Source: an uncultured Phycisphaerae bacterium (GTDB taxonomy: Bacteria; Planctomycetota; Phycisphaerae; SM23-33). From it: a stretch of DNA of 64,000 nucleotides. Shown here in pieces: positions 6,663 through 58,172 of the stretch. The DNA lies in the NCBI GenBank assembly GCA_963760365.1, contig CAVXDC010000012.1, forward strand, positions 2,475-66,474. The letters run 5' to 3'. Position numbers and translations under genes: made by a program. Positions within the stretch are counted from its first letter, which is position 1. Each line of letters opens with the position of its first letter. The notes beneath the pieces were generated by a model that did not search any database, was not told the DNA's origin, and worked only from the letters and a program-made list of their open reading frames with translations.

Positions 6663-6895
6663 GGTTTCATCCTTCCCGAGTACCTGAGTCATATGTGTGT
6701 TAGTTAAAAGCTCCTCGCCGGTGTTGCCTCTCCTAAAGGCCCACTCGAAGTCGGGGGAGGGCTTCCTGAGAGGGAGCAGGAATCATACGGCCAAGGCCCC
6801 TGATACGCAAGGCTGACAGACCGTGGACCGTAGGGTGGGTCACTTGTAACCCGCGGAAAACCTGCCTACGTGAATAATGCGGCCTGCAATTCCGT

Positions 6896-6921
6896 GGGCA
6901 GCGGAGCTGCCCACCCTACAA
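6896..6921. repeat. GTAGGG-hairpin element (perfect 9-bp inverted repeat gtgggcagc/gctgcccac) in the gap-pgk intergenic region
   Basis: Read on the minus strand it is GTAGGG TGGGCAGC TCCG CTGCCCAC, located after the gap stop codon. A second GTAGGGTGGG...ACCC hairpin-like copy lies at 6831-6855. Same family as the elements at 38868, 39806 and 40886. It may act as an intercistronic terminator or attenuator. Confidence 0.5.
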
Positions 6922-37623: not shown

Positions 37624-38852
37624 ATGCACGCGATTGATGAAATCCTGGCCGAGCTGCGAAGCGGGCGGATGATCGTCCTGGTGGACGACGAGAACCGCGA
37701 GAACGAGGGCGACCTGGTCTGCGCGGCCGAGAAGATCACGCCCGAGGCCGTCAACTTCATGCTCCACGAGGCCCGCGGCGTGCTCTGCGTGCCGATGACG
37801 GGCGACCGGGCCGACCGGCTGGCGCTGTACCCCCAGGCCAGCGAGAACACCGCCCTGCACGGCACGGCCTTCACCGTGACCGTCGATGCGGCCGGGGGCG
37901 TGACCACCGGCGTGTCGGCCGCCGACCGGGCTAGGACCATCGAGGTCCTGGTCCGCGACGACAGCCGGCCCGGCGACCTCGCCCGGCCGGGACACATCAA
38001 CCCGCTGCGGGCCCGCGACGGCGGCGTGCTCGTCCGCGCCGGCCAGACCGAGGGCGCGGTGGACCTGTGCCGCCTGGCGGGGCTGAAGCCCGTGGCCGTC
38101 ATCTGCGAGATCATGAACGAGGACGGCACGATGGCCCGCCTGCCCGACCTGGAAAAGTTCTGCGCCGCCACTCGCTCAAGATGTGCTCGGTGGCCGACGT
38201 CATCCGCTACCGCCTCCGCAGCGAGCGGCTGATCGACCGGGCCGTGGAGATCGACCTGCCCACCGAGGCCGGCACCTTCCACCTGATCGCCTACAAGTCC
38301 CTGGTGGACCCCGAGCCGCACCTGGCCCTGTGCACCGGCGGCGTGGGCAAGCTGGACAAGGACGGCAAGCCCATCATTCATCCCGAGCCGGTGCTGGTCC
38401 GCGTGCACAGCGAGTGCCTCACCGGCGACGTGCTGGGCTCGCTGCGGTGCGATTGCGGCCCGCAGCTCCGCACCGCCCTGCGCCAGGTGGCCGAGGCGGG
38501 CAAGGGCGCGGTGGTCTACATCCGCCAGGAGGGCCGCGGCATCGGCCTGGTCAACAAGCTGCAGGCCTACAAGCTCCAGATGGAAAAGGGCATGGACACC
38601 GTCGAGGCCAACCTCCACCTGGGCTTCCAGGCCGACACGCGGGACTACGGCATCGGCAACCAGATCCTCCGCGACCTGGGGCTGACGCAACTGCGCATCC
38701 TGACCAACAACCCGCGGAAGATCCTCGGCCTGGAGGGCTTCGGCCTGACGATCGTCGAGCGCGTGCCGCTTCTAATCCCCCCCGACGAGCACACCCGCGA
38801 CTATCTCAAGACCAAAAAGGACAAACTCGGCCATCTGCTGGAGGGTTTGTAG
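37624..38852 (+). CDS. ribBA: Bifunctional 3,4-dihydroxy-2-butanone-4-phosphate synthase / GTP cyclohydrolase II; one 1-bp frameshift near 38168
   Basis: RibB domain ([21 protein letters not shown]) in one frame and RibA (CDCGPQL...[11 protein letters not shown]) in the next. Restoring one C in gccgcc(c)actcg joins them. Confidence 0.9.
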
Positions 38853-38867
38853 ATTGTAGGGTGTGCA

Positions 38868-38910
38868 GGTTCTCCACAAAGCGGGGGTTCTGCACACGCG
38901 AATCGTCGTG
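38868..38910. repeat. GTAGGG-hairpin element (8-bp inverted repeat gtgtgcag/ctgcacac) at the ribBA 3' end and the low-GC islet boundary
   Basis: GTAGGG TGTGCAG gttctccacaaagcgggggtt CTGCACAC immediately after the ribBA stop. Same GTAGGG-plus-palindrome format as the elements at 6896, 39806 and 40886. Confidence 0.5.
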
Positions 38911-38959
38911 TTGGTTTTCTGTGGGCAACAAGTTGCCCACCCTACTGGACTTGACTGGG

Positions 38960-39748
38960 CTACTCAAACGGGCTCAAGGTATCTCTATTCGGGAATTGGA
39001 AGCTCAGTTTTGTGCCAACCGAAGCATTTGACGGAATACCCCCTGGTGGGTCGTATGCACCTACACAACCATGGCTTCTGGGCCAACGTGAATCGGCCAA
39101 TTTCTCCCAATCGTATATGCGCAATGCCCAGAAACATATTGGATCCCCATTGTCGGCTCGCACGAATACACACTCGTAGACGCACTTCCCATTGCAGCAC
39201 TCGATGCGGTCGAGATTCCTGGCCAAGCGGTTCTTCTTGATCACCTCCGGGACGAAGGATTGCTGGTCTAGGATATCATTAAACATAATTTTCTCCCCAT
39301 TTCTTCGACCCTTTGGGAAAGGTGTATGCACGAAGGAAGGGTTGGTTCTCGGCAAGTGCACATGATAGAGAGCTGCGTGGAAGCCTCGAACCCATCTCCA
39401 AACGATCCGATCCAGATTGATGTTCGTAGTGAAGGCAATAGGCGTGGCATCGTCCTGCAGTCTTCCGGCTGTGATGGCGAGACGTTGCCGTTCAGGTCGA
39501 GGAAGGCGTCCATGGTGCGCTGAAACTAACTGGGCTACGAGTTCATCCTCTCCAGACTCGGCATCGTTGCAACTGGGGTGCGTGAGCAGGATCAAAGGGT
39601 CTCCTCGATCAGCCTCAAGGAAGATCGCTTTAGGAGGAACGTGATCCCGGTTTGGCTGCTCCGCCTTCTCGAAAGGTTTGCCGCACAGGTAGCAGAAGTC
39701 TAACCTTGCACAAATCTGTAGTTCCCTTTGTGTCACGATCTGGATCAA
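38960..39748 (-). CDS. HNH endonuclease-like protein (low-GC islet)
   Basis: CYLCGKPF...NRDHVPPKAIF is an HNH-type motif (CxxC...DH..P). GC content is clearly lower than the surroundings. The likely start is TTG 39746-39748 after a GAGG ribosome-binding site, because the computed upstream extension overlaps a GTAGGG hairpin. Confidence 0.5.
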   Translation of the reverse strand: MIQIVTQRELQICARLDFCYLCGKPFEKAEQPNRDHVPPKAIFLEADRGDPLILLTHPSCNDAESGEDELVAQLVSAHHGRLPRPERQRLAITAGRLQDDATPIAFTTNINLDRIVWRWVRGFHAALYHVHLPRTNPSFVHTPFPKGRRNGEKIMFNDILDQQSFVPEVIKKNRLARNLDRIECCNGKCVYECVFVRADNGDPICFWALRIYDWEKLADSRWPRSHGCVGAYDPPGGIPSNASVGTKLSFQFPNRDTLSPFE

Positions 39749-39805
39749 GTAGTGCCTCGATTTATCTTTGCTGTTTCTCTTTACATCGTTCAGGTAGTTG
39801 CGTAG

Positions 39806-39830
39806 GGCGGGAGAATCGTTTCCCGCAGCT
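39806..39830. repeat. GTAGGG-hairpin element, copy A (gtagggcgggagaatcgtttcccgc)
   Basis: Matches copy B at 40886-40910 in 22 or 23 of 25 positions. Sits between the two low-GC islet genes. Confidence 0.6.
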
Positions 39831-39845
39831 AATGAGACACTGGCC

Positions 39846-40559
39846 CTACTTTGGCCTACCGTATAGCTTTTTCCAGCGAGACTTGATCCATGCGGCCATC
39901 CCCAGAACAACAGGAATCAACGCAGCCGTTAACATCTTGTCTGATATGGGGAATACAAAGCCTTCCTTGTACTCAAGCCCTTCGCGCAGTCTGATACTCC
40001 TGACCATTTGTTCAAGTATAGGGCTGTACTTCTCCACGTCCTTATCATCACAGTACAACACTGTCATAACCGTCCCTTGTTCCGTCAGCCTCATTCCTAT
40101 TATCCTCTTGAGGCCAGTTGGGTCGCTTATCTTCATCCAAAGAATGTGGCTTTCCGGTTCGTAGACGGGAGAACCGATGTCGAGTGAGGAACCCACTGAG
40201 GGGTCTATCTTGCTGACCTCTGTCTTGAGTCTTTGATTTATTGTCTTATATTTTTTCAACTCTTGTTCAGGCACACGTTTGGTTCTCACCTGAACCAAGA
40301 CATATGGTGTCTGCATCCAGGTTTTATTGGTCGAGGGCTGGAAACCGGCATCCATCTCCATGTTTACCGAAGCCGGTACGTTCTGCTGTAAGAGTCTAGA
40401 ATCCTCATCCAAGACGTTCTGAGGAATACGAACCCAACCGGCCGGTATCTGCATTGATATACCATCAGACACCGTGTACTGCTGCGAAGGATCGACTGCA
40501 CGGACTTGGACGGACAGCACGGCAAGAATAAGCGGGACTATCAGAAGCATTCTCATCAC
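39846..40559 (-). CDS. Hypothetical secreted protein with a C-terminal TM anchor (low-GC islet)
   Basis: Signal peptide (MMRMLLIVPLILAVLSVQVRA), C-terminal hydrophobic helix (LTAALIPVVLGMAAWI) and a basic tail. Low GC and atypical codon usage for this genome. Confidence 0.5.
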   Translation of the reverse strand: MMRMLLIVPLILAVLSVQVRAVDPSQQYTVSDGISMQIPAGWVRIPQNVLDEDSRLLQQNVPASVNMEMDAGFQPSTNKTWMQTPYVLVQVRTKRVPEQELKKYKTINQRLKTEVSKIDPSVGSSLDIGSPVYEPESHILWMKISDPTGLKRIIGMRLTEQGTVMTVLYCDDKDVEKYSPILEQMVRSIRLREGLEYKEGFVFPISDKMLTAALIPVVLGMAAWIKSRWKKLYGRPK

Positions 40560-40885
40560 AATGGTCTCCCCGTTCTCTGGTGCGTAACCGGAGCAACTAT
40601 CTTACGCGGCCAGTACTAAATGGCAAGTTTGTAGGTTGGGAAGCCCGGTGCCGTGGCCGCGGCGTTTGCGGCCACGTAGGTTACAGGCGCAACTGGGGAA
40701 AGGACTGTCGATCCAGTCGAATAGGCTCATTCACGCCCGTCTCCCACGCCCTGGCGCTGGACCACGGCCAGTCCTCCGCACGCGGCATAAGGCCACGCCG
40801 GACAGGATTATTGTGAATGTAACGGGCCTTCTCGTGAATCTCCTGGGTTGACCGCATGTTCCGGTCATACCCCCCTCCGCGCTGC

Positions 40886-40910
40886 CAGCTTGTAGGGCGG
40901 GAAACTCGTT
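40886..40910. repeat. GTAGGG-hairpin element, copy B (gtagggcgggaaactcgtttcccgc; perfect 9-bp stem)
   Basis: gcgggaaac-tc-gtttcccgc palindrome preceded by GTAGG, at the far boundary of the low-GC islet. Confidence 0.6.
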
Positions 40911-40924
40911 TCCCGCGGAATCCC

Positions 40925-42218
40925 TTATTCCGGCTTCTGCCAATCTGGGGGGTTTTTGAGTTTGTAGAGTCTCTCTCCGGCCTGGGGGACGTAGAGGAGG
41001 CCGCCCGATTCGTGGCCTTGCCAATCGGCAACGTTGATGCTGGCCGGGTCGCGGTAGCCAAGGTTGATCTTGCGGCAGAGGGATTCGGGGATGCCCGTGG
41101 CCAGCGTGACCTGGATGCGGCATTTCTCGACGCCATTCTCGTACGTGCCGATGCCGCGGACGTGAGTCGAGTGCGCCAGCACGCCCCAGGGGAAGTGCTT
41201 GTAGCGTTCCCACTGGGCGAGGAAAAAATCCCGCGTGTGGTAGCCGATTTCTTCGATGATCCGACCGTGGGCGGCGGAAAGCTGCGTGATGTGTGGGGCG
41301 TAGATAATCAGCTCGCCCCCGTCGGCCACGACGGGCTCCATCTTGTACATGCACTTGCCGCCGGTCCACAGCTCGTCGTACATCTCCGGCGCGGGAGAGC
41401 ACCGAGTCGAAGGGCTTTTCCATGTAGGTGATGTGGAGCTTGTCGGACAGGTCCACCGCGGCCGACCAGCTCTCGCGCACCGGGCCGAAGAACAGACCCG
41501 CCAGCTCGTGCTCGGTAACGACCATGCACAGGGCGAACTTCTCGAACTTCTTTAACAAGAGCATGTCGGCGGCCGCCTCCAGCGTGGTGCGGACGGGCGT
41601 GTCCTTGTTGCCGATGATCCTGGGATTGGTGATGACCGCCCCCAGCCAGTGGAAGAAGTTCAGCAGCTCGGCCCCGCAGATGCCCGGGAAAAAGTACTTG
41701 CTGCCGCCGGAAAAGCCCACAACCTCGTGCGGGAAGACCGGCCCGGCCACCAGCACCAGGTCGTAGTCGAACACCATCTTGTTGATGGTGACGGTCACGT
41801 CCATCTCGAACCGCCCGGCGGTGATTTTGCGAATCTGCGCCGCCGGCAGCGTGCCGATGGACGTCAGGGCGGCCGGGTCGTTCCAGCGATGGTTGAAAAA
41901 CCGGCTGCCGCGAAAAACCTTTTCTCTCTCGCGATATCCGGCCTTGACGCCTATCAGGCGGTCGATCTGCGATTCGCTGAGCGGCGGGTGCGTGCCCAGG
42001 GCGATGAGGAAGTCCAGCTTGGCGGCCACCGGAGCCAGGGCGGCGTGAAGCTGCCGCGTGAGCATCGGCAGCGGGCAGGACCGCGTGTGGTCGGGCAGCA
42101 GGACCAGGACCTTCTTGCCCGCCGGCGACATCGCTCCCGCGGCGGCGGTGATGACCTGGGCCGATTCGGCCTCGCTCAGGTGCCCCCCAATCGGTGCTAC
42201 GCGCGAGATCACGCTCAT
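40925..42218 (-). CDS. LarA-like (nickel-dependent lactate racemase family, DUF2088) protein; one 1-bp frameshift near 41386
   Basis: N-terminal KKVLVLLPDHTRSCPLPML is the LarA-type motif. The C-terminal half continues in the next frame (MYDELWTGGKCMYKMEPVVADGGELIIYAPH). The other minus-strand frames over this region are low-complexity artefacts. Confidence 0.65.
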
Positions 42219-42271: not shown

Positions 42272-42997
42272 TCACGGGTTGGCCGGTTGCGTCGTCGGGA
42301 CAGGTGCGGCCGCGGGGGCTATCCGGGCGGGCTGGGTGGCGAGGTAGGCGTTCACTTGGGCCAGGGCCTGGTTGAAGAGGCGGTGCTTGTCGGCCGCGCT
42401 GCCGGCGATCATCGCCTGCTCGCGGGCGGCGGTGAGCAGGGCGGCGACGCGGGCCTTTTGCTCCTCGCTCAGGTCGTGCTTGGCGGTGATGTCGTTGTAG
42501 AGCAGCTTGGCCCGGCCGTAGGTCATCTTGTCCTTGACGGTCTCGATCTGACCGGATGAGAGCACCTTGCCCAAGTCGGCCAGCAGCGCCTCGCGCATCC
42601 GGGCCAGCTCATCGTCCAAAGCCTTCAGCTCGGTCTGGAGCTCTTTGGCCCCAGCCTCGGCGCTATCTTTGGGGGCCTTGGCCAATTGCCTTTCCAGCTC
42701 CTTGATCTTGTCGTCGTTGGGCTCCCAGGCGATCCGCTTGACGTAAAAGGCCGTCATCACGGCCCGGACCTTGGCCTCCTTGGCCGGGTCGCCCAGGGCC
42801 AAGGCCTCCAGGATGCCGGCGGCGGCCTTGTCGGCCGTGGCCTTGATGGCGTCGGCTTCGCTGGCGGCCTGGGTGGTCGTGGGCTGAGTCGTCTGCTGAC
42901 TTGCCGGCTGGCTCGTGGCCTCCGCCAGCGCGATGGACGCCGTTGCCAACCCCGCACCCCAAACGGCCAGACACACCGTGAACGTCCACTTGCGCAT
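42272..42997 (-). CDS. Hypothetical secreted or periplasmic coiled-coil protein
   Basis: Signal peptide MRKWTFTVCLAVWGAGLATASIALA with a Thr/Gln-rich linker. The computed ORF start at 43123 is an artefact that runs into tRNA-Ser. Confidence 0.45.
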   Translation of the reverse strand: MRKWTFTVCLAVWGAGLATASIALAEATSQPASQQTTQPTTTQAASEADAIKATADKAAAGILEALALGDPAKEAKVRAVMTAFYVKRIAWEPNDDKIKELERQLAKAPKDSAEAGAKELQTELKALDDELARMREALLADLGKVLSSGQIETVKDKMTYGRAKLLYNDITAKHDLSEEQKARVAALLTAAREQAMIAGSAADKHRLFNQALAQVNAYLATQPARIAPAAAPVPTTQPANP

Positions 42998-43079
42998 CGT
43001 GCGATCCTTTCCGAGCTCTAGCGCCCGTCCGAAGGTTTTTTCATCCTCATTGGCCGGTGAGTGCCCAGCCAATAGCGAA

Positions 43080-43166
43080 CGGTAGGGGTGGGATTCGAAC
43101 CCACGGTACCCTTGCGGGCACACCGGTTTTCAAGACCGGCCCGATCGACCGCTCCGGCACCCTACC
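43080..43166 (-). tRNA. tRNA-Ser (anticodon TGA)
   Basis: The reverse complement folds as a class II tRNA: acceptor GGTAGGG/CCCTACC, anticodon arm CCGGT-CTTGAAA-ACCGG (anticodon TGA), long variable arm, T arm GTGGG-TTCGAAT-CCCAC, discriminator G. CCA is not encoded. Confidence 0.9.
43122..43166. repeat. Left copy of a 45-bp direct repeat (5' half of tRNA-Ser); putative island boundary attL
   Basis: accggttttcaagaccggcccgatcgaccgctccggcaccctacc. An imperfect copy with 42 of 45 matches lies at 58128-58172 in the same orientation. Confidence 0.7.
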
Positions 43167-43360
43167 ACAGTAGTCACAGGACCCGCATCTGACGGGCCTG
43201 AGATGCATTTCAGCCGCGTCGGACGGGCCTTCTCTGCATATCGTCCAGCTCGCCGCTTTGTCCCACCGCAACCCACCGGAGCACATGGCAACCCACCCCG
43301 TTGGGGGCAGTCCGGGGGGCAGTGGAGCAGGCAGTCGAGCGGGCAGTAAATCGCCGCCAC

Positions 43361-44164
43361 TCATGCCCCACCCGTTCCAGTCCTACCAGATTCTACCAGC
43401 GCAGGCTTTGCACACAAGTCCGGCAGCCGGCTCAGGGCGTCTACTTCCTGCTCTTGGAGGACGTGGGTGTAGCGGTCCATGGTCAGGGTGATGGTGCAGT
43501 GGCGGGCCAGGGATTGGGCCACGCGGGGATGGACTCCTCCCCTGGCCAGGTTAGTGATGAACGTGTGCCGCAGGGCGTGCCAATCGGCGTAGCGGCCGTT
43601 CTGATCGCGATACGGAATGCCGGCGGCAGCCAGGTCGGTCTGGAGCAGGCCGGCCCGGGCATTCTTGGAGCGTGGAAGGGAGAACGCGGGGCCGTCAGGC
43701 ATCTTGAGCGCCAGGGCCTGCTGGAGCTTGGTTACCAGCTCGGCTCGGAGCAGGACTGTGTCATCACGGCGGTGCTTGGAGTACGCCGCCCTGACCACAA
43801 GCCATGGCGGGTCGGCCTCGAAGTCGAAACTCCCCCGCGTCAGGGACATGATCTCGCGGACACGCAGCCCGGTCTCCAGGGCCAACTGATAGACCAGCGC
43901 CCGATCCGTCCCGGACATGCCGCCACGATTGGGCCTGCTTGCTGCCGCTTCAATGAGCCGGCAACACTCCTCAGTGGATAGCGCCCTCCTGTCATGCCGG
44001 CGGTCCAGTCTGACGTTCTGGCCTGAGAGGCCCACCAGGGGGTTCTCGTTCGCTCGGCGCTCACGGACCATCCAGCGGCAGAACTGCTTGGCCGCCTGGA
44101 GATAGAAGTTGGCCGTCTGAATTGAGACGCTGGGCTTATCCTTGGCATAAGTAGCTGACGACAC
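43361..44164 (-). pseudogene. Tyrosine recombinase / phage-type integrase, N-terminally truncated
   Basis: Catalytic domain with the RHTF and RYTH-type residues (WHALRHTFITNLARGG...LTMDRYTHV). The ORF begins at a GTG immediately after an in-frame TAG, the region upstream is lower-GC, and at 267 aa it lacks the N-terminal arm-binding domain. It lies adjacent to the tRNA-Ser 5' side. Confidence 0.7.
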
Positions 44165-54835: not shown

Positions 54836-54900
54836 GATGGGGTGGGATTCGAACGCATGACCCGCCGGTTATGAGCCGACTTAGCCAGCCATCCTGAACC
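54836..54900 (-). pseudogene. Partial tRNA-Met-like fragment (anticodon arm CAT plus T-loop and acceptor 3' strand; no matching 5' half)
   Basis: Reverse complement ...GTCGG-CTCATAA-CCGGC GGGTC ATGCG-TTCGAAT-CCCAC CCCATCT A. The T stem has mismatches and no complementary 5' acceptor strand could be found. Confidence 0.35.
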
Positions 54901-56586: not shown

Positions 56587-56665
56587 CTAGCGGGGGTGGG
56601 ATTCGAACCCACGACCTCCGGGTCATCACCTCGACGAGCCAACAACGGCCGCCACTAGCCTCTGC
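56587..56665 (-). pseudogene. tRNA-like fragment (perfect T arm plus acceptor 3' strand; upstream part does not fold)
   Basis: Reverse complement ends ...GAGGTC GTGGG-TTCGAAT-CCCAC CCCCGCT A. Candidate 5' acceptors pair poorly and a full cloverleaf could not be built. Confidence 0.3.
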
Positions 56666-58127: not shown

Positions 58128-58172
58128 ACCAGTTTTCAATACCGGCCCGATCGACCACTCCGGCACCCTACC
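58128..58172. repeat. Right copy of the 45-bp tRNA-Ser 5'-half direct repeat (putative attR)
   Basis: accagttttcaataccggcccgatcgaccactccggcaccctacc has three mismatches to 43122-43166. The flanking sequence is unrelated to tRNA-Ser. Confidence 0.7.

Follow-up and report, generated by a model that had tools for sequence, protein, structure and literature searches.

Where ribBA and the larA-like gene converge, the low-GC patch is a mosaic islet of an ordinary sort: two unrelated foreign accessory genes lie there among host GTAG-type REPs and the decayed remains of a REP-associated tyrosine transposase (RAYT) gene. In the window, meaning the whole 64-kb stretch of DNA that was analysed, which comes from a Phycisphaerae-like planctomycete, the ribBA/larA-like gap is probably a nest of REPs with the two foreign genes lodged in it. 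An initial annotation had read the patch quite differently, as a nuclease and an exported protein that could form a small module, bracketed by hairpin repeats. The layout of the islet, the nature of the hairpins and the distribution of both gene families are set out below.

Composition and layout of the islet

The stretch at 38.9-40.6 kb is the lone low-GC segment of the window. Sliding GC is 0.46-0.55 at about 38.8-40.6 kb and 0.62-0.76 on both sides, and a scan of the whole 64 kb in 700-nt windows gives values below 0.56 at the islet only (minimum 0.474; mean of the 64 kb 0.645, sd 0.036). Codon usage falls with it, since GC3 is 0.565 and 0.57 in the two islet genes, compared with 0.83-0.95 in the ribBA and larA-like flanks. 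The composition of the islet is an outlier by 4-5 sd, and its secreted-protein gene has close relatives on contigs of another GC and gene context. The drop in GC and codon usage and the foreign origin of the segment, both proposed in the initial annotation, are thus borne out, and the two same-strand genes it described are indeed found on the minus strand, intact and 97 nt apart. The features are as follows.

6830..6919, no strand, inverted doublet of REPs, GTAGGGTGGG type like those of the islet, in an unrelated gap between genes 32 kb from it
38850-38852, ribBA stop codon
38856..38945, no strand, GTAG-type REPs as an inverted doublet, immediately following the ribBA stop codon
38856-38899, plus strand, left unit of this doublet, GTAGGGTGTGCAG...CTGCACAC
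38945-38921, minus strand, right unit of this doublet, GTAGGGTGGGCAACTTGTTGCCCAC
38960..39748, minus strand, HNH-like gene for a 262-aa protein (P0001), TTG start, GAGG ribosome-binding site, GC 0.523
39802..39849, no strand, REP doublet between the two islet genes: strong hairpin 39802-39826 (plus) and GTAGGG head 39849-39844 (minus)
39802-39826, plus strand, REP GTAGGGCGGGAGAATCGTTTCCCGC
39846..40556, minus strand, secreted-protein gene for a 236-aa protein (P0121), GC 0.484
40631..40685, no strand, degenerate REP-like spacer adjoining the 3' end of the RAYT remnant
40681..40887, minus strand, C-terminal remnant of a RAYT (IS200-like Y1), about 67 aa and a stop codon
40892-40916, plus strand, REP GTAGGGCGGGAAACTCGTTTCCCGC, 8 nt from the larA-like stop codon, fold z = -3.0
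40925-40927, larA-like stop codon
43079-43167, tRNA-Ser
43364-44164, integrase

An Rfam search gave no match at 38-42 kb, and a scan for promoters and terminators stayed at chance level.

Could the islet be a chimeric join in the MAG contig, made at the repeated hairpins? Repeats do lie at its junctions, ribBA and the larA-like gene on either side contain 1-nt frameshifts in this contig (at about 38170 and 41390) that suggest error-prone assembly, and only the MAG contig covers the right-hand junction, past 40677. However, an independent Logan contig of 2,017 bp (L001), which matches at 99.85% over 38666-40677, runs from the interior of ribBA up to 40677, taking in the HNH-like gene, the intervening REP doublet and the secreted-protein gene, and so confirms both the ribBA-islet and the gene-gene junctions. 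REPs of 25 nt are also too short to mislead most assemblers, and we regard an artefact as extremely unlikely.

GTAG-type REPs and a RAYT remnant

The GTAGGG hairpins are GTAG-type REPs of the host, present singly and as inverted doublets. Such REPs have been reported from Planctomycetes as short imperfect palindromes with an unpaired 5' GTAG head, stems of 5-13 bp and loops of 2-20 nt, also occurring as dimers; their usual site is downstream of ORFs, where the heads often give TAG stop codons, and they flank RAYT genes (PMC3733652). The units in the window have this structure of a palindrome with an unpaired GTAG head: at 6830, 6919 (minus), 38856, 38945 (minus), 39802 and 40892, GTAGGG is followed by a stem of 7-10 bp. 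The 10-mer GTAGGGYGKG occurs six times in the 64 kb against 0.49 expected, always in intergenic DNA, at four sites that include 6830-6919, and three inverted doublets are present. Folded as DNA, the doublet after ribBA reaches -19 kcal/mol (z = -2.6) and the one at 6830..6919 reaches -25.2 kcal/mol (z = -5.1). The stems also covary, with changes on both sides in five of eight stem pairs and a score of 0.382 versus 0.136 for shuffled sequences (0.382 was reached in none of 500 shuffles), in a sample of only nine sequences selected for hairpin formation. Because a doublet of the same type stands 32 kb away, the hairpins are a property of the host genome and not of the islet, whose ends they had been taken to be. 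The copies at 6830-6919, outside the islet, had been overlooked in that earlier reading.

Their arrangement also differs from a pair of brackets. The near-identical 25-bp repeats placed earlier at 39806 and 40886 are a real pair, 23 of 25 nt being identical and no such pair appearing in 100 shuffles, but they lie at 39802 and 40892; they enclose only the secreted-protein gene and the transposase remnant, and one copy sits between the two genes. Likewise, the related hairpin reported at 38868 exists, but it occupies 38856-38899 and is one half of an inverted doublet with 38921-38945. In the doublet between the genes, the hairpin of the minus-strand GTAGGG head (39849-39844) is weak, and the TAG of this head is the stop codon of the secreted-protein gene. 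The degenerate spacer at 40631..40685 has GTAGGTT heads at 40631 and 40677 on both sides of a 10-bp G+C hairpin (40652-40676), whose fold alone is not significant (z = -1.4).

A RAYT gene was once present in the ribBA/larA-like gap, and its last 67 or so codons are left. The remnant, with a host-like GC of 0.61, aligns to positions 97-146 of the 146 in NCBIfam NF047646 (E = 2.8e-11) and is 58% identical to residues 134-200 of a 201-aa RAYT on an unrelated metagenome contig (L119); the N-terminal part of about 133 aa, which would include the HUH region, is gone. It is the sole NF047646-type match in the window. Being partial, the match scores 43.5 bits, short of the 80-bit cut-off, and with just the 50 C-terminal profile positions covered, a full-length RAYT was rejected in favour of a remnant. 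This stub at 40681-40887 had also escaped the initial annotation.

The association of REPs with a RAYT is seen twice. Here, the truncation point of the remnant is 4 nt from the REP at 40892, and on L119 the intact RAYT homologue is preceded, at 110-240 nt, by near-identical REPs (GTAGGGTTGGCAACTTGTTGCCGAC and GTAGGGCGTGCTACTTGTTGCACGC); the unit at 38945-38921 shares 22 of 25 positions with a REP on that contig. GTAGGG REPs occur at only about five of 80 related RAYT loci, and most close metagenome homologues of the remnant have no visible GTAG hairpins at their flanks. As so few homologues are REP-flanked, the claim of a cognate transposase is weakened while the identity of the REPs is unaffected, and the remnant may not derive from the cognate enzyme of the local REPs. 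The locus otherwise resembles the described GTAG-type REPs, REPINs and BIMEs with their RAYT (TnpA-REP) (Nunvar 2010, PMC2817692; Di Nocera 2013, PMC3733652) in its unpaired GTAG(GG) head and 7-10 bp G+C stem, its inverted doublets, its intergenic position just 3' of ORFs with a TAG stop supplied by the head, its compensatory stem changes and the adjoining RAYT-family gene. It differs from these systems in that the local RAYT is only a dead C-terminal stub, few of whose close homologues have visible REPs at their flanks.

Two separately acquired genes and their meeting with the REPs

The two low-GC genes are unrelated and were acquired separately, as their different closest relatives and different neighbours demonstrate. 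In blastn, the islet splits into one block at 38963-39750 (69% to contig L008) and another at 39847-40583, which is 87.5% identical at the nucleotide level to metagenome contigs L002-L007 over this interval only; nothing outside the genes is held in common, and the L002-like contigs have a GC and a gene context unlike those of the islet. Upstream of the nearest relative of the HNH-like gene lies an unrelated 333-aa gene. When all neighbouring ORFs at 44 loci of this family, drawn from many phyla, were compared mutually, no recurrent neighbour was found; all that recurs is antisense shadows of the HNH-like gene and ubiquitous ABC ATPases, and Pfam and PADLOC tallies of 90 neighbours show no recurrent family either.

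The secreted-protein family, with six members, has other company. In its two closest relatives (79% and 75% aa identity) the next gene downstream encodes a HEPN_RES_NTD1+RES protein, and MNT/HEPN is a further neighbour of the gene. The HEPN_RES_NTD1+RES architecture is that of aRES, a stand-alone antiphage protein (bioRxiv 10.64898/2026.01.28.702374) that joins HEPN/RES-NTD1, a domain named in PMC3710099, to a RES NAD+ phosphorylase. The link sets the secreted-protein gene in defence-island surroundings; as aRES has been described as a single-gene system, however, the secreted protein is not a known component of it. At our locus there is no RES gene after the secreted-protein gene, and the REP doublet and the HNH-like gene stand there instead; the HNH-like protein has no homology to the RES protein that takes its place elsewhere. 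The secreted-protein gene would then be a fragment of a defence-island neighbourhood, parted from its aRES neighbour.

The 236-aa product has, on inspection, both features ascribed to it earlier, a signal peptide and a C-terminal anchor: an N-terminal signal-like segment (MRMLLIVPLILAVLSVQVRA) is followed by an ectodomain of about 190 aa, a hydrophobic transmembrane helix at the C-terminus and a basic tail. It is predicted to be exported, with this helix anchoring it to the outer face of the cytoplasmic membrane. It belongs to no Pfam, NCBIfam, PADLOC or PHROG family, has no PADLOC-DB match at E<=1, and gives only a faint PsbP-like signal.

Could the two genes nevertheless work together in defence, toxin-immunity or competition, as one small module that arrived whole and ends at hairpins of its own? 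They share strand and low GC at a spacing of 97 nt, and relatives of each are sometimes found beside defence or toxin genes. Against this, the HNH-like and secreted-protein genes lie side by side at this locus and at no other locus found, so that the proposed co-occurrence in other genomes is not seen; the closest relatives have other partners, and the 44 loci have no shared neighbour. The families are unequal in size (about 1,200 clusters against six proteins), each homology block ends where its gene does, a host REP doublet separates the two blocks, and the same hairpins occur elsewhere in this genome and in other genomes. A module is very improbable on these grounds, and the idea of a nuclease paired with an exported protein is not upheld. 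What can be kept, loosely, is a flavour of defence-like accessory gene for each of the two singly.

How, then, did foreign genes and REPs come together? REPs stand at every junction (38856-38945, 39802-39849 and 40892-40916), and they may either have invaded the new intergenic spacers after acquisition or have served as recombination points during it. Under the latter scenario, REP/RAYT-mediated capture, each foreign gene would have entered at a REP used for recombination or insertion, and the RAYT would have been cut in the same process. Besides the REPs at all junctions and the truncation of the RAYT 4 nt from a GTAG head, capture is favoured by the end of the donor-like homology: the match of the secreted-protein gene to L002 stops at 39847, exactly at the GTAG head over the stop codon, where the donor-like contig has G|TAA. 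An imperfect 12-nt repeat, GTTTGTAG(A/G)TTG, also lies at 38845 and 40627, near both ends of the low-GC block, but it is at chance level, with 22 such families in 4 kb. GTAG REPs, moreover, normally settle 3' of ORFs and often give TAG stops (PMC3733652), and this habit means that invasion after acquisition explains the same junction pattern. Capture is thus unlikely in our judgement. A search for a close relative with an empty site gave none: the nearest ribBA relatives (75-88% aa) either lie on short contigs or are followed by wholly different genes, as are all of those at 75-81% identity.

Two other vehicles were considered and rejected. For an integron cassette, the match to the other copy does not extend past the stop codon, and the 48-nt spacer has, by inspection, no GTTRRRY or RYYYAAC boxes. 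For a tRNA-linked integrative island, larA-like and DUF3826 genes of host GC separate the islet from the tRNA-Ser and the integrase. Repeats of tRNA fragments are present at 54.8-58.2 kb, on the far side from the islet.

The 262-aa family and the meaning of the locus

The product of the HNH-like gene was described earlier as a protein of about 260 aa with a CxxC...DHxP motif, and it is a 262-aa protein with C19xxC22...D35-H36-x-P38. An N-terminal HNH-like domain of about 80 aa holds a CxxC...DH...HxxCN zinc finger and is followed by a C-terminal domain of about 180 aa. The family comprises about 1,200 clusters at 50% identity (E<=0.001), uniformly around 260 aa long, from Planctomycetota, Acidobacteriota, Proteobacteria, Chloroflexota, Nitrospirota and other phyla. 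C19, C22, D35, H36, H57 and C60 are invariant, N61 is almost invariant, and R118, H124, R174, D180, C205 and C228 are conserved polar residues of the C-terminal domain. The AF2 model (pLDDT 90.9) has strands at 33-36, which holds D35-H36, and at 53-56, and a helix from 58 around H57xxCN. The family is without annotation in Pfam, NCBIfam and PADLOC, the protein has no PADLOC-DB match at E<=1, and no match was found in 72,556 plasmids, 50,697 phages or IMG/VR contigs.

The HNH identity of the protein is weakly supported. The motif is invariant, and the HNH profile PF01844 is matched over almost its whole length (positions 1-45 of 47, E = 0.025), while HNH_5 (PF14279) is hit by 13 of the 36 family members examined, the best E-value being 0.005; both stay below the Pfam gathering thresholds (15.2 vs 21.4 bits and 15.3 vs 27.5 bits). 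An hhalign comparison with McrA-type HNH pairs the CxxC and DH with their equivalents at a probability of 21%. The nuclease call of the initial annotation stands only so far, as neither profile nor fold search leads to a solved HNH nuclease. Profile searches of the PDB with the full family and with the N-terminal domain return zinc fingers and ribbons and no HNH nuclease chain, whereas a single McrA HNH sequence recovers 40 HNH chains there; Foldseek with the full model and with the N-terminal-domain model gives nothing significant, zinc-ribbon ribosomal proteins appearing at E>=0.1. The C-terminal domain has no recognised fold and no counterpart among solved or viral structures.

These searches, together with the many invariant polar residues of the C-terminal domain, are what an alternative builds on, in which the protein is no nuclease, its N-terminal CCHC zinc finger serves for binding only, and the chemistry lies in the C-terminal domain. 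D35-H36, however, is invariant and, seen from the CxxC, stands where HNH has its catalytic His; N61 comes after the second zinc pair in the manner of CxxCN/H, and PF01844 covers the region almost completely; we consider this alternative possible but doubtful. Most likely, the 262-aa protein is a stand-alone accessory enzyme with an N-terminal CCHC zinc His-Me-finger-like nuclease domain and a C-terminal recognition domain, and its mode of action would be that of a lone type IV (McrA/TagI-like) nuclease or of another single-gene defence nuclease. With the solitary type IV HNH nucleases (E. coli McrA, PDB 6GHC; ScoMcrA; TagI) it shares the single gene without a methyltransferase partner, the patchy distribution across lineages, and a CxxC...(D/H)H...xxC(N/H) zinc and His-Me motif joined to a larger second domain. 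It differs from them in its reversed domain order, the HNH-like part being N-terminal, in a second zinc pair that is HxxC and not CxxC, in its sub-threshold Pfam scores, in resembling no solved HNH nuclease by sequence or fold, and in a C-terminal domain that matches no known reader domain.

In most of the 44 homologue loci the GC of the HNH-like gene is below that of its flanks, and integrases or transposases are near some of them. Some neighbours are defence genes (Cas1, a PLD nuclease, SIR2_2, DpnI-like, ThsB, SduA and PDC candidates), at about eight of 44 loci, a modest enrichment by a count without a control. That the family represents a new kind of stand-alone defence nuclease, with a divergent CCHC His-Me finger and a C-terminal sensing or recognition domain, is a tentative idea that we think rather unlikely to hold.

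The locus has no bearing on any long-standing open question, and the uncharacterised 262-aa family is its sole mildly novel item. For annotation, the lesson is that, in a planctomycete, hairpins with a GTAG head that surround a low-GC patch are REPs and not island borders, and that a RAYT stub of 67 codons is easily overlooked. The locus also shows REPs exactly at the seams of newly acquired genes, to the point of donating a stop codon. The 262-aa family, being widespread, uniform, unannotated and confidently modelled without a structural match, is worth the attention of specialists; if its members are indeed nucleases with a new recognition domain, they would add one more single-gene accessory or defence enzyme.

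A low-GC gap holding two foreign genes

Measured in 300-nt windows, GC content is 0.67-0.76 in ribBA, drops to 0.46-0.55 at about 38.8-40.6 kb and recovers to 0.61-0.70 thereafter. In 700-nt windows, values below 0.56 are confined to 38.6-40.9 kb; the lowest is 0.474, and the whole window averages 0.645 (sd 0.036). The two genes of this islet have third-position GC of 0.565 and 0.57, whereas ribBA reaches 0.95 and the larA-like gene 0.83. The GC drop described in the initial annotation is real and unique within the window, and the two same-strand genes reported there are indeed both encoded on the minus strand:

38850-38852, ribBA stop codon; ribBA and the larA-like gene converge on the gap
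38960-39748, minus strand, HNH-like gene, 262 aa, TTG start with GAGG before it
39846-40556, minus strand, secreted gene, 236 aa
40925-40927, stop codon of the larA-like gene, convergent with ribBA across the gap

An independent Logan assembly contig of 2,017 bp covers 38666-40677 at 99.85% identity, so the ribBA-islet and gene-gene junctions are not artefacts of one assembler.

When the islet was compared with the fetched contigs by blastn, 39847-40583 matched one set (L002-L007) at 87.5% and 38963-39750 matched another (L008-L011) at 69%, and no shared sequence was found beyond the coding regions. At the stop of the secreted gene, a donor-like contig reads CAG|TAA where the window reads AAG|TAGGGCC..., and homology ends there. 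The nearest relative of the HNH-like gene (L008, 68% amino acid identity) is preceded by a gene for an unrelated 333-aa protein. The two distinct blocks and the low GC uphold the proposed horizontal acquisition, in the form of two foreign genes that were acquired separately. The nearest relatives of both genes and of a transposase remnant beside them all come from the JGI metagenome series Ga03152xx, which is consistent with exchange inside one community. The initial annotation had also suggested that the pair could be a module of a nuclease and an exported protein; separate homology blocks, differing neighbours and the absence of any recurrent neighbour speak against this, and joint action of the two proteins is not expected.

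The 236-aa protein is favoured to be exported and, by prediction, C-tail-anchored. Its distant homologues (23-28% identity) share the plan of signal peptide, ectodomain, transmembrane helix and basic tail and occur in housekeeping gene contexts; a PsbP-like signal is only faint. The relative on L002-L007 (79% amino acid identity) comes after an MNT/HEPN pair and before a 406-aa HEPN_RES_NTD1+RES protein, and a protein of this kind also follows the relative on another contig, L058 (75%). The HEPN_RES_NTD1 domain was named in PMC3710099, and the architecture is that of aRES, a stand-alone antiphage NAD+ phosphorylase published as a single-gene system (bioRxiv 10.64898/2026.01.28.702374). On these two diverged contigs (L002 922-3854, L058 724-2956), the gene for the C-tail-anchored secreted protein directly precedes the aRES-type gene.

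GTAG-type REPs and a transposase remnant

The 25-nt repeats at 39802-39826 and 40892-40916 agree at 23 of 25 positions, and no such pair arose in shuffled sequence. Near-identity, as the initial annotation had it, stands; the idea of a module bracketed by its own hairpins is not supported, given their repetitive extragenic palindrome (REP) anatomy and hairpins of the same type 32 kb away. In each hairpin, an unpaired GTAG(GG) head leads into a G+C stem of 7-10 bp. Inverted doublets occur at 38856/38945, at 39802/39849 and, in an unrelated intergenic gap 32 kb off, at 6830/6919, and the 10-mer GTAGGGYGKG is found six times in the window (0.49 expected). The TAG stop of the secreted gene is itself the TAG of a minus-strand GTAGGG head (39849-39844). 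GTAG REPs were described in Planctomycetes by Di Nocera et al. with stems of 5-13 bp, loops of 2-20 nt, a predominance of dimers, sites downstream of ORFs, heads that "often provide the stop codon (TAG)", and genes for REP-associated tyrosine transposases (RAYTs) flanked by them (PMC3733652). Every one of these features is matched, and the window hairpins are GTAG-type REPs. Nine units drawn from the window and RAYT contigs, a small set picked for hairpin formation, show compensatory changes in five of eight stem pairs. With their near-identical sequence and direct orientation, the REPs at 39802 and 40892 look like products of a recent duplication or transposition.

Immediately to the right of the secreted gene lies a feature that the initial annotation missed:

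40681-40887, minus strand, RAYT remnant

Its translation (...WQRGGGYDRNMRSTQEIHEKARYIHNNPVRRGLMPRAEDWPWSSARAWE...) aligns with the final 50 positions of NCBIfam NF047646, "REP-associated tyrosine transposase" (E = 2.8e-11), and residues 134-200 of a 201-aa RAYT homologue at 58% identity. The N-terminal two thirds are missing and the gene is therefore dead. This RAYT-family remnant is the sole RAYT-type sequence in the window, and the GTAG head of the REP at 40892 is 4 nt from its end. A metagenome scan with the remnant peptide recovered 80 RAYT loci. One contig, L119, carries a doublet GTAGGGTTGGCAACTTGTTGCCGAC with 22/25 identity to the window unit at 38945, and two GTAGGGCGTGCTACTTGTTGCACGC units 110-240 nt upstream of an intact RAYT; GTAGGGTGGG hairpins are present on L111 and L116. 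Because most of the 80 homologue loci lack a GTAG hairpin within 350 nt, the remnant is not proven as the mover of the window REPs.

The locus combines a convergent REP-rich gap, a decayed RAYT, two foreign genes and REP units at every seam. The two genes may have been gained by illegitimate or REP-assisted recombination; alternatively, REPINs would have settled the new spacers after the genes arrived, and the data favour neither order. Overall, horizontally acquired DNA forms an ordinary mosaic here, set in a REP nest, and the original observation was largely correct.

Two other kinds of repeat were observed. An imperfect 12-nt repeat, GTTTGTAG(A/G)(T/G)T(G/C), occurs at 38845-38856 (the ribBA stop codon), 40627-40638 (about 45 nt beyond where homology of the secreted gene ends on its upstream side) and 40960-40971 (within the larA-like 3' end); the low-GC block lies roughly between the first and second copies, and the repeat may reflect chance or a target motif containing GTAG. 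On L012, from a Planctomycetaceae MAG, short tandem repeats of the GTAGGC/GTAGGTC type (such as GTAGGTCATAGGTCGTAGGTC and its complement) occupy 1850-2170, about 2 kb upstream of an HNH-like homologue.

Flanking genes

Both islet flanks are split by apparent 1-nt deletions, at 38160-38175 in ribBA (gccgcc^actcg) and at 41385-41395 in the larA-like gene (cgcgcc^ggagatg, where ...DSVLSRA should run on as ...EMYDELW...). The public ribBA gene call is split too (P0127, 223 aa); either the assembly contains indels at the breaks, or both genes are true pseudogenes. In the closest named relative (Phycisphaerae MAG JAFGEJ010000207, L054 938-7091; RibBA 81% amino acid identity), ribBA is followed by an AAA_16/BrxC-like/nSTAND ATPase, two unknown genes, a HicB-like gene and a PIN toxin pair; in this lineage the site downstream of ribBA appears to host varying accessory genes.

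A minus-strand gene at 42272-43123, between the larA-like gene and tRNA-Ser(tga), encodes a DUF3826 protein of 283 aa whose N-terminus is signal-like; the true start of the gene must lie further downstream because the listed long ORF begins within the tRNA. The tRNA (43079-43167) adjoins a 267-aa tyrosine integrase (43364-44164), and direct repeats of tRNA-Ser fragments are found at 54839-54855 and 56593-56613 (3' T-arm part) and 58141-58172 (5' part). These suggest at least one integrative element at tRNA-Ser, of host-like GC and on the far side from the islet.

The 262-aa protein family

Is the 262-aa protein an HNH nuclease, as first suggested? The family shows no variation at C19, C22, G23, D35, H36, P38, H57 and C60, and almost none at N61, where one member has H. 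In the AF2 model (pLDDT 90.9), D35-H36 lie on strand 33-36, followed by strand 53-56 and a helix from residue 58, a predicted order that is the one expected of a beta-beta-alpha-metal finger. Alignment with four solved HNH domains by hhalign paired the CxxC and DH correctly, at a probability of only 21%. PF01844 aligned over profile positions 1-45 of 47 (E = 0.025), and PF14279 gave hits in 13 of 36 family members. On the other side, every Pfam score fell below threshold. Family profiles retrieved no HNH chain from the PDB, where a single McrA HNH segment finds 40, and Foldseek with the full model or the separately predicted N-terminal domain (pLDDT 78) returned zinc-ribbon proteins only (E>=0.1). 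The C-terminal 180 aa have invariant R118, F123, H124, R174, D180, C205, W214 and C228 and no matches in PDB or BFVD. A true His-Me nuclease domain is slightly better than an even bet; that the protein is a single-gene nuclease working like the type IV, McrA-like enzymes is the favoured reading of its function, held with low confidence.

A word-indexed search found 125 family clusters, and an exhaustive profile search 1,200 representatives at E<=0.001, including 275 at E<=1e-30; nearly all of the top 150 matches are 250-270 aa and align end to end. Forty-two GTDB loci span Planctomycetota, Acidobacteriota, Alpha- and Gammaproteobacteria, Chloroflexota, Nitrospirota, Binatota, Gemmatimonadota, Bdellovibrionota and Latescibacterota, and in most loci the gene is lower in GC than its flanks. 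No neighbour recurs among the family loci. Tightly coupled upstream genes include those for Cas1, a PLD/NgoFVII-like nuclease, SIR2_2, a SEC-C protein, GroEL, a PALP enzyme and a DnaJ protein, and integrases, IS66, a resolvase, DpnI, ThsB, SduA and PADLOC candidate families appear once or twice each in the wider neighbourhood, a modest, uncontrolled lean toward variable or defence regions. The family was not found in plasmid, phage and IMG/VR collections, and the overall impression is of a solitary accessory gene that resides on chromosomes and moves horizontally. This widespread, uncharacterised protein family is the one moderately novel item of the locus.
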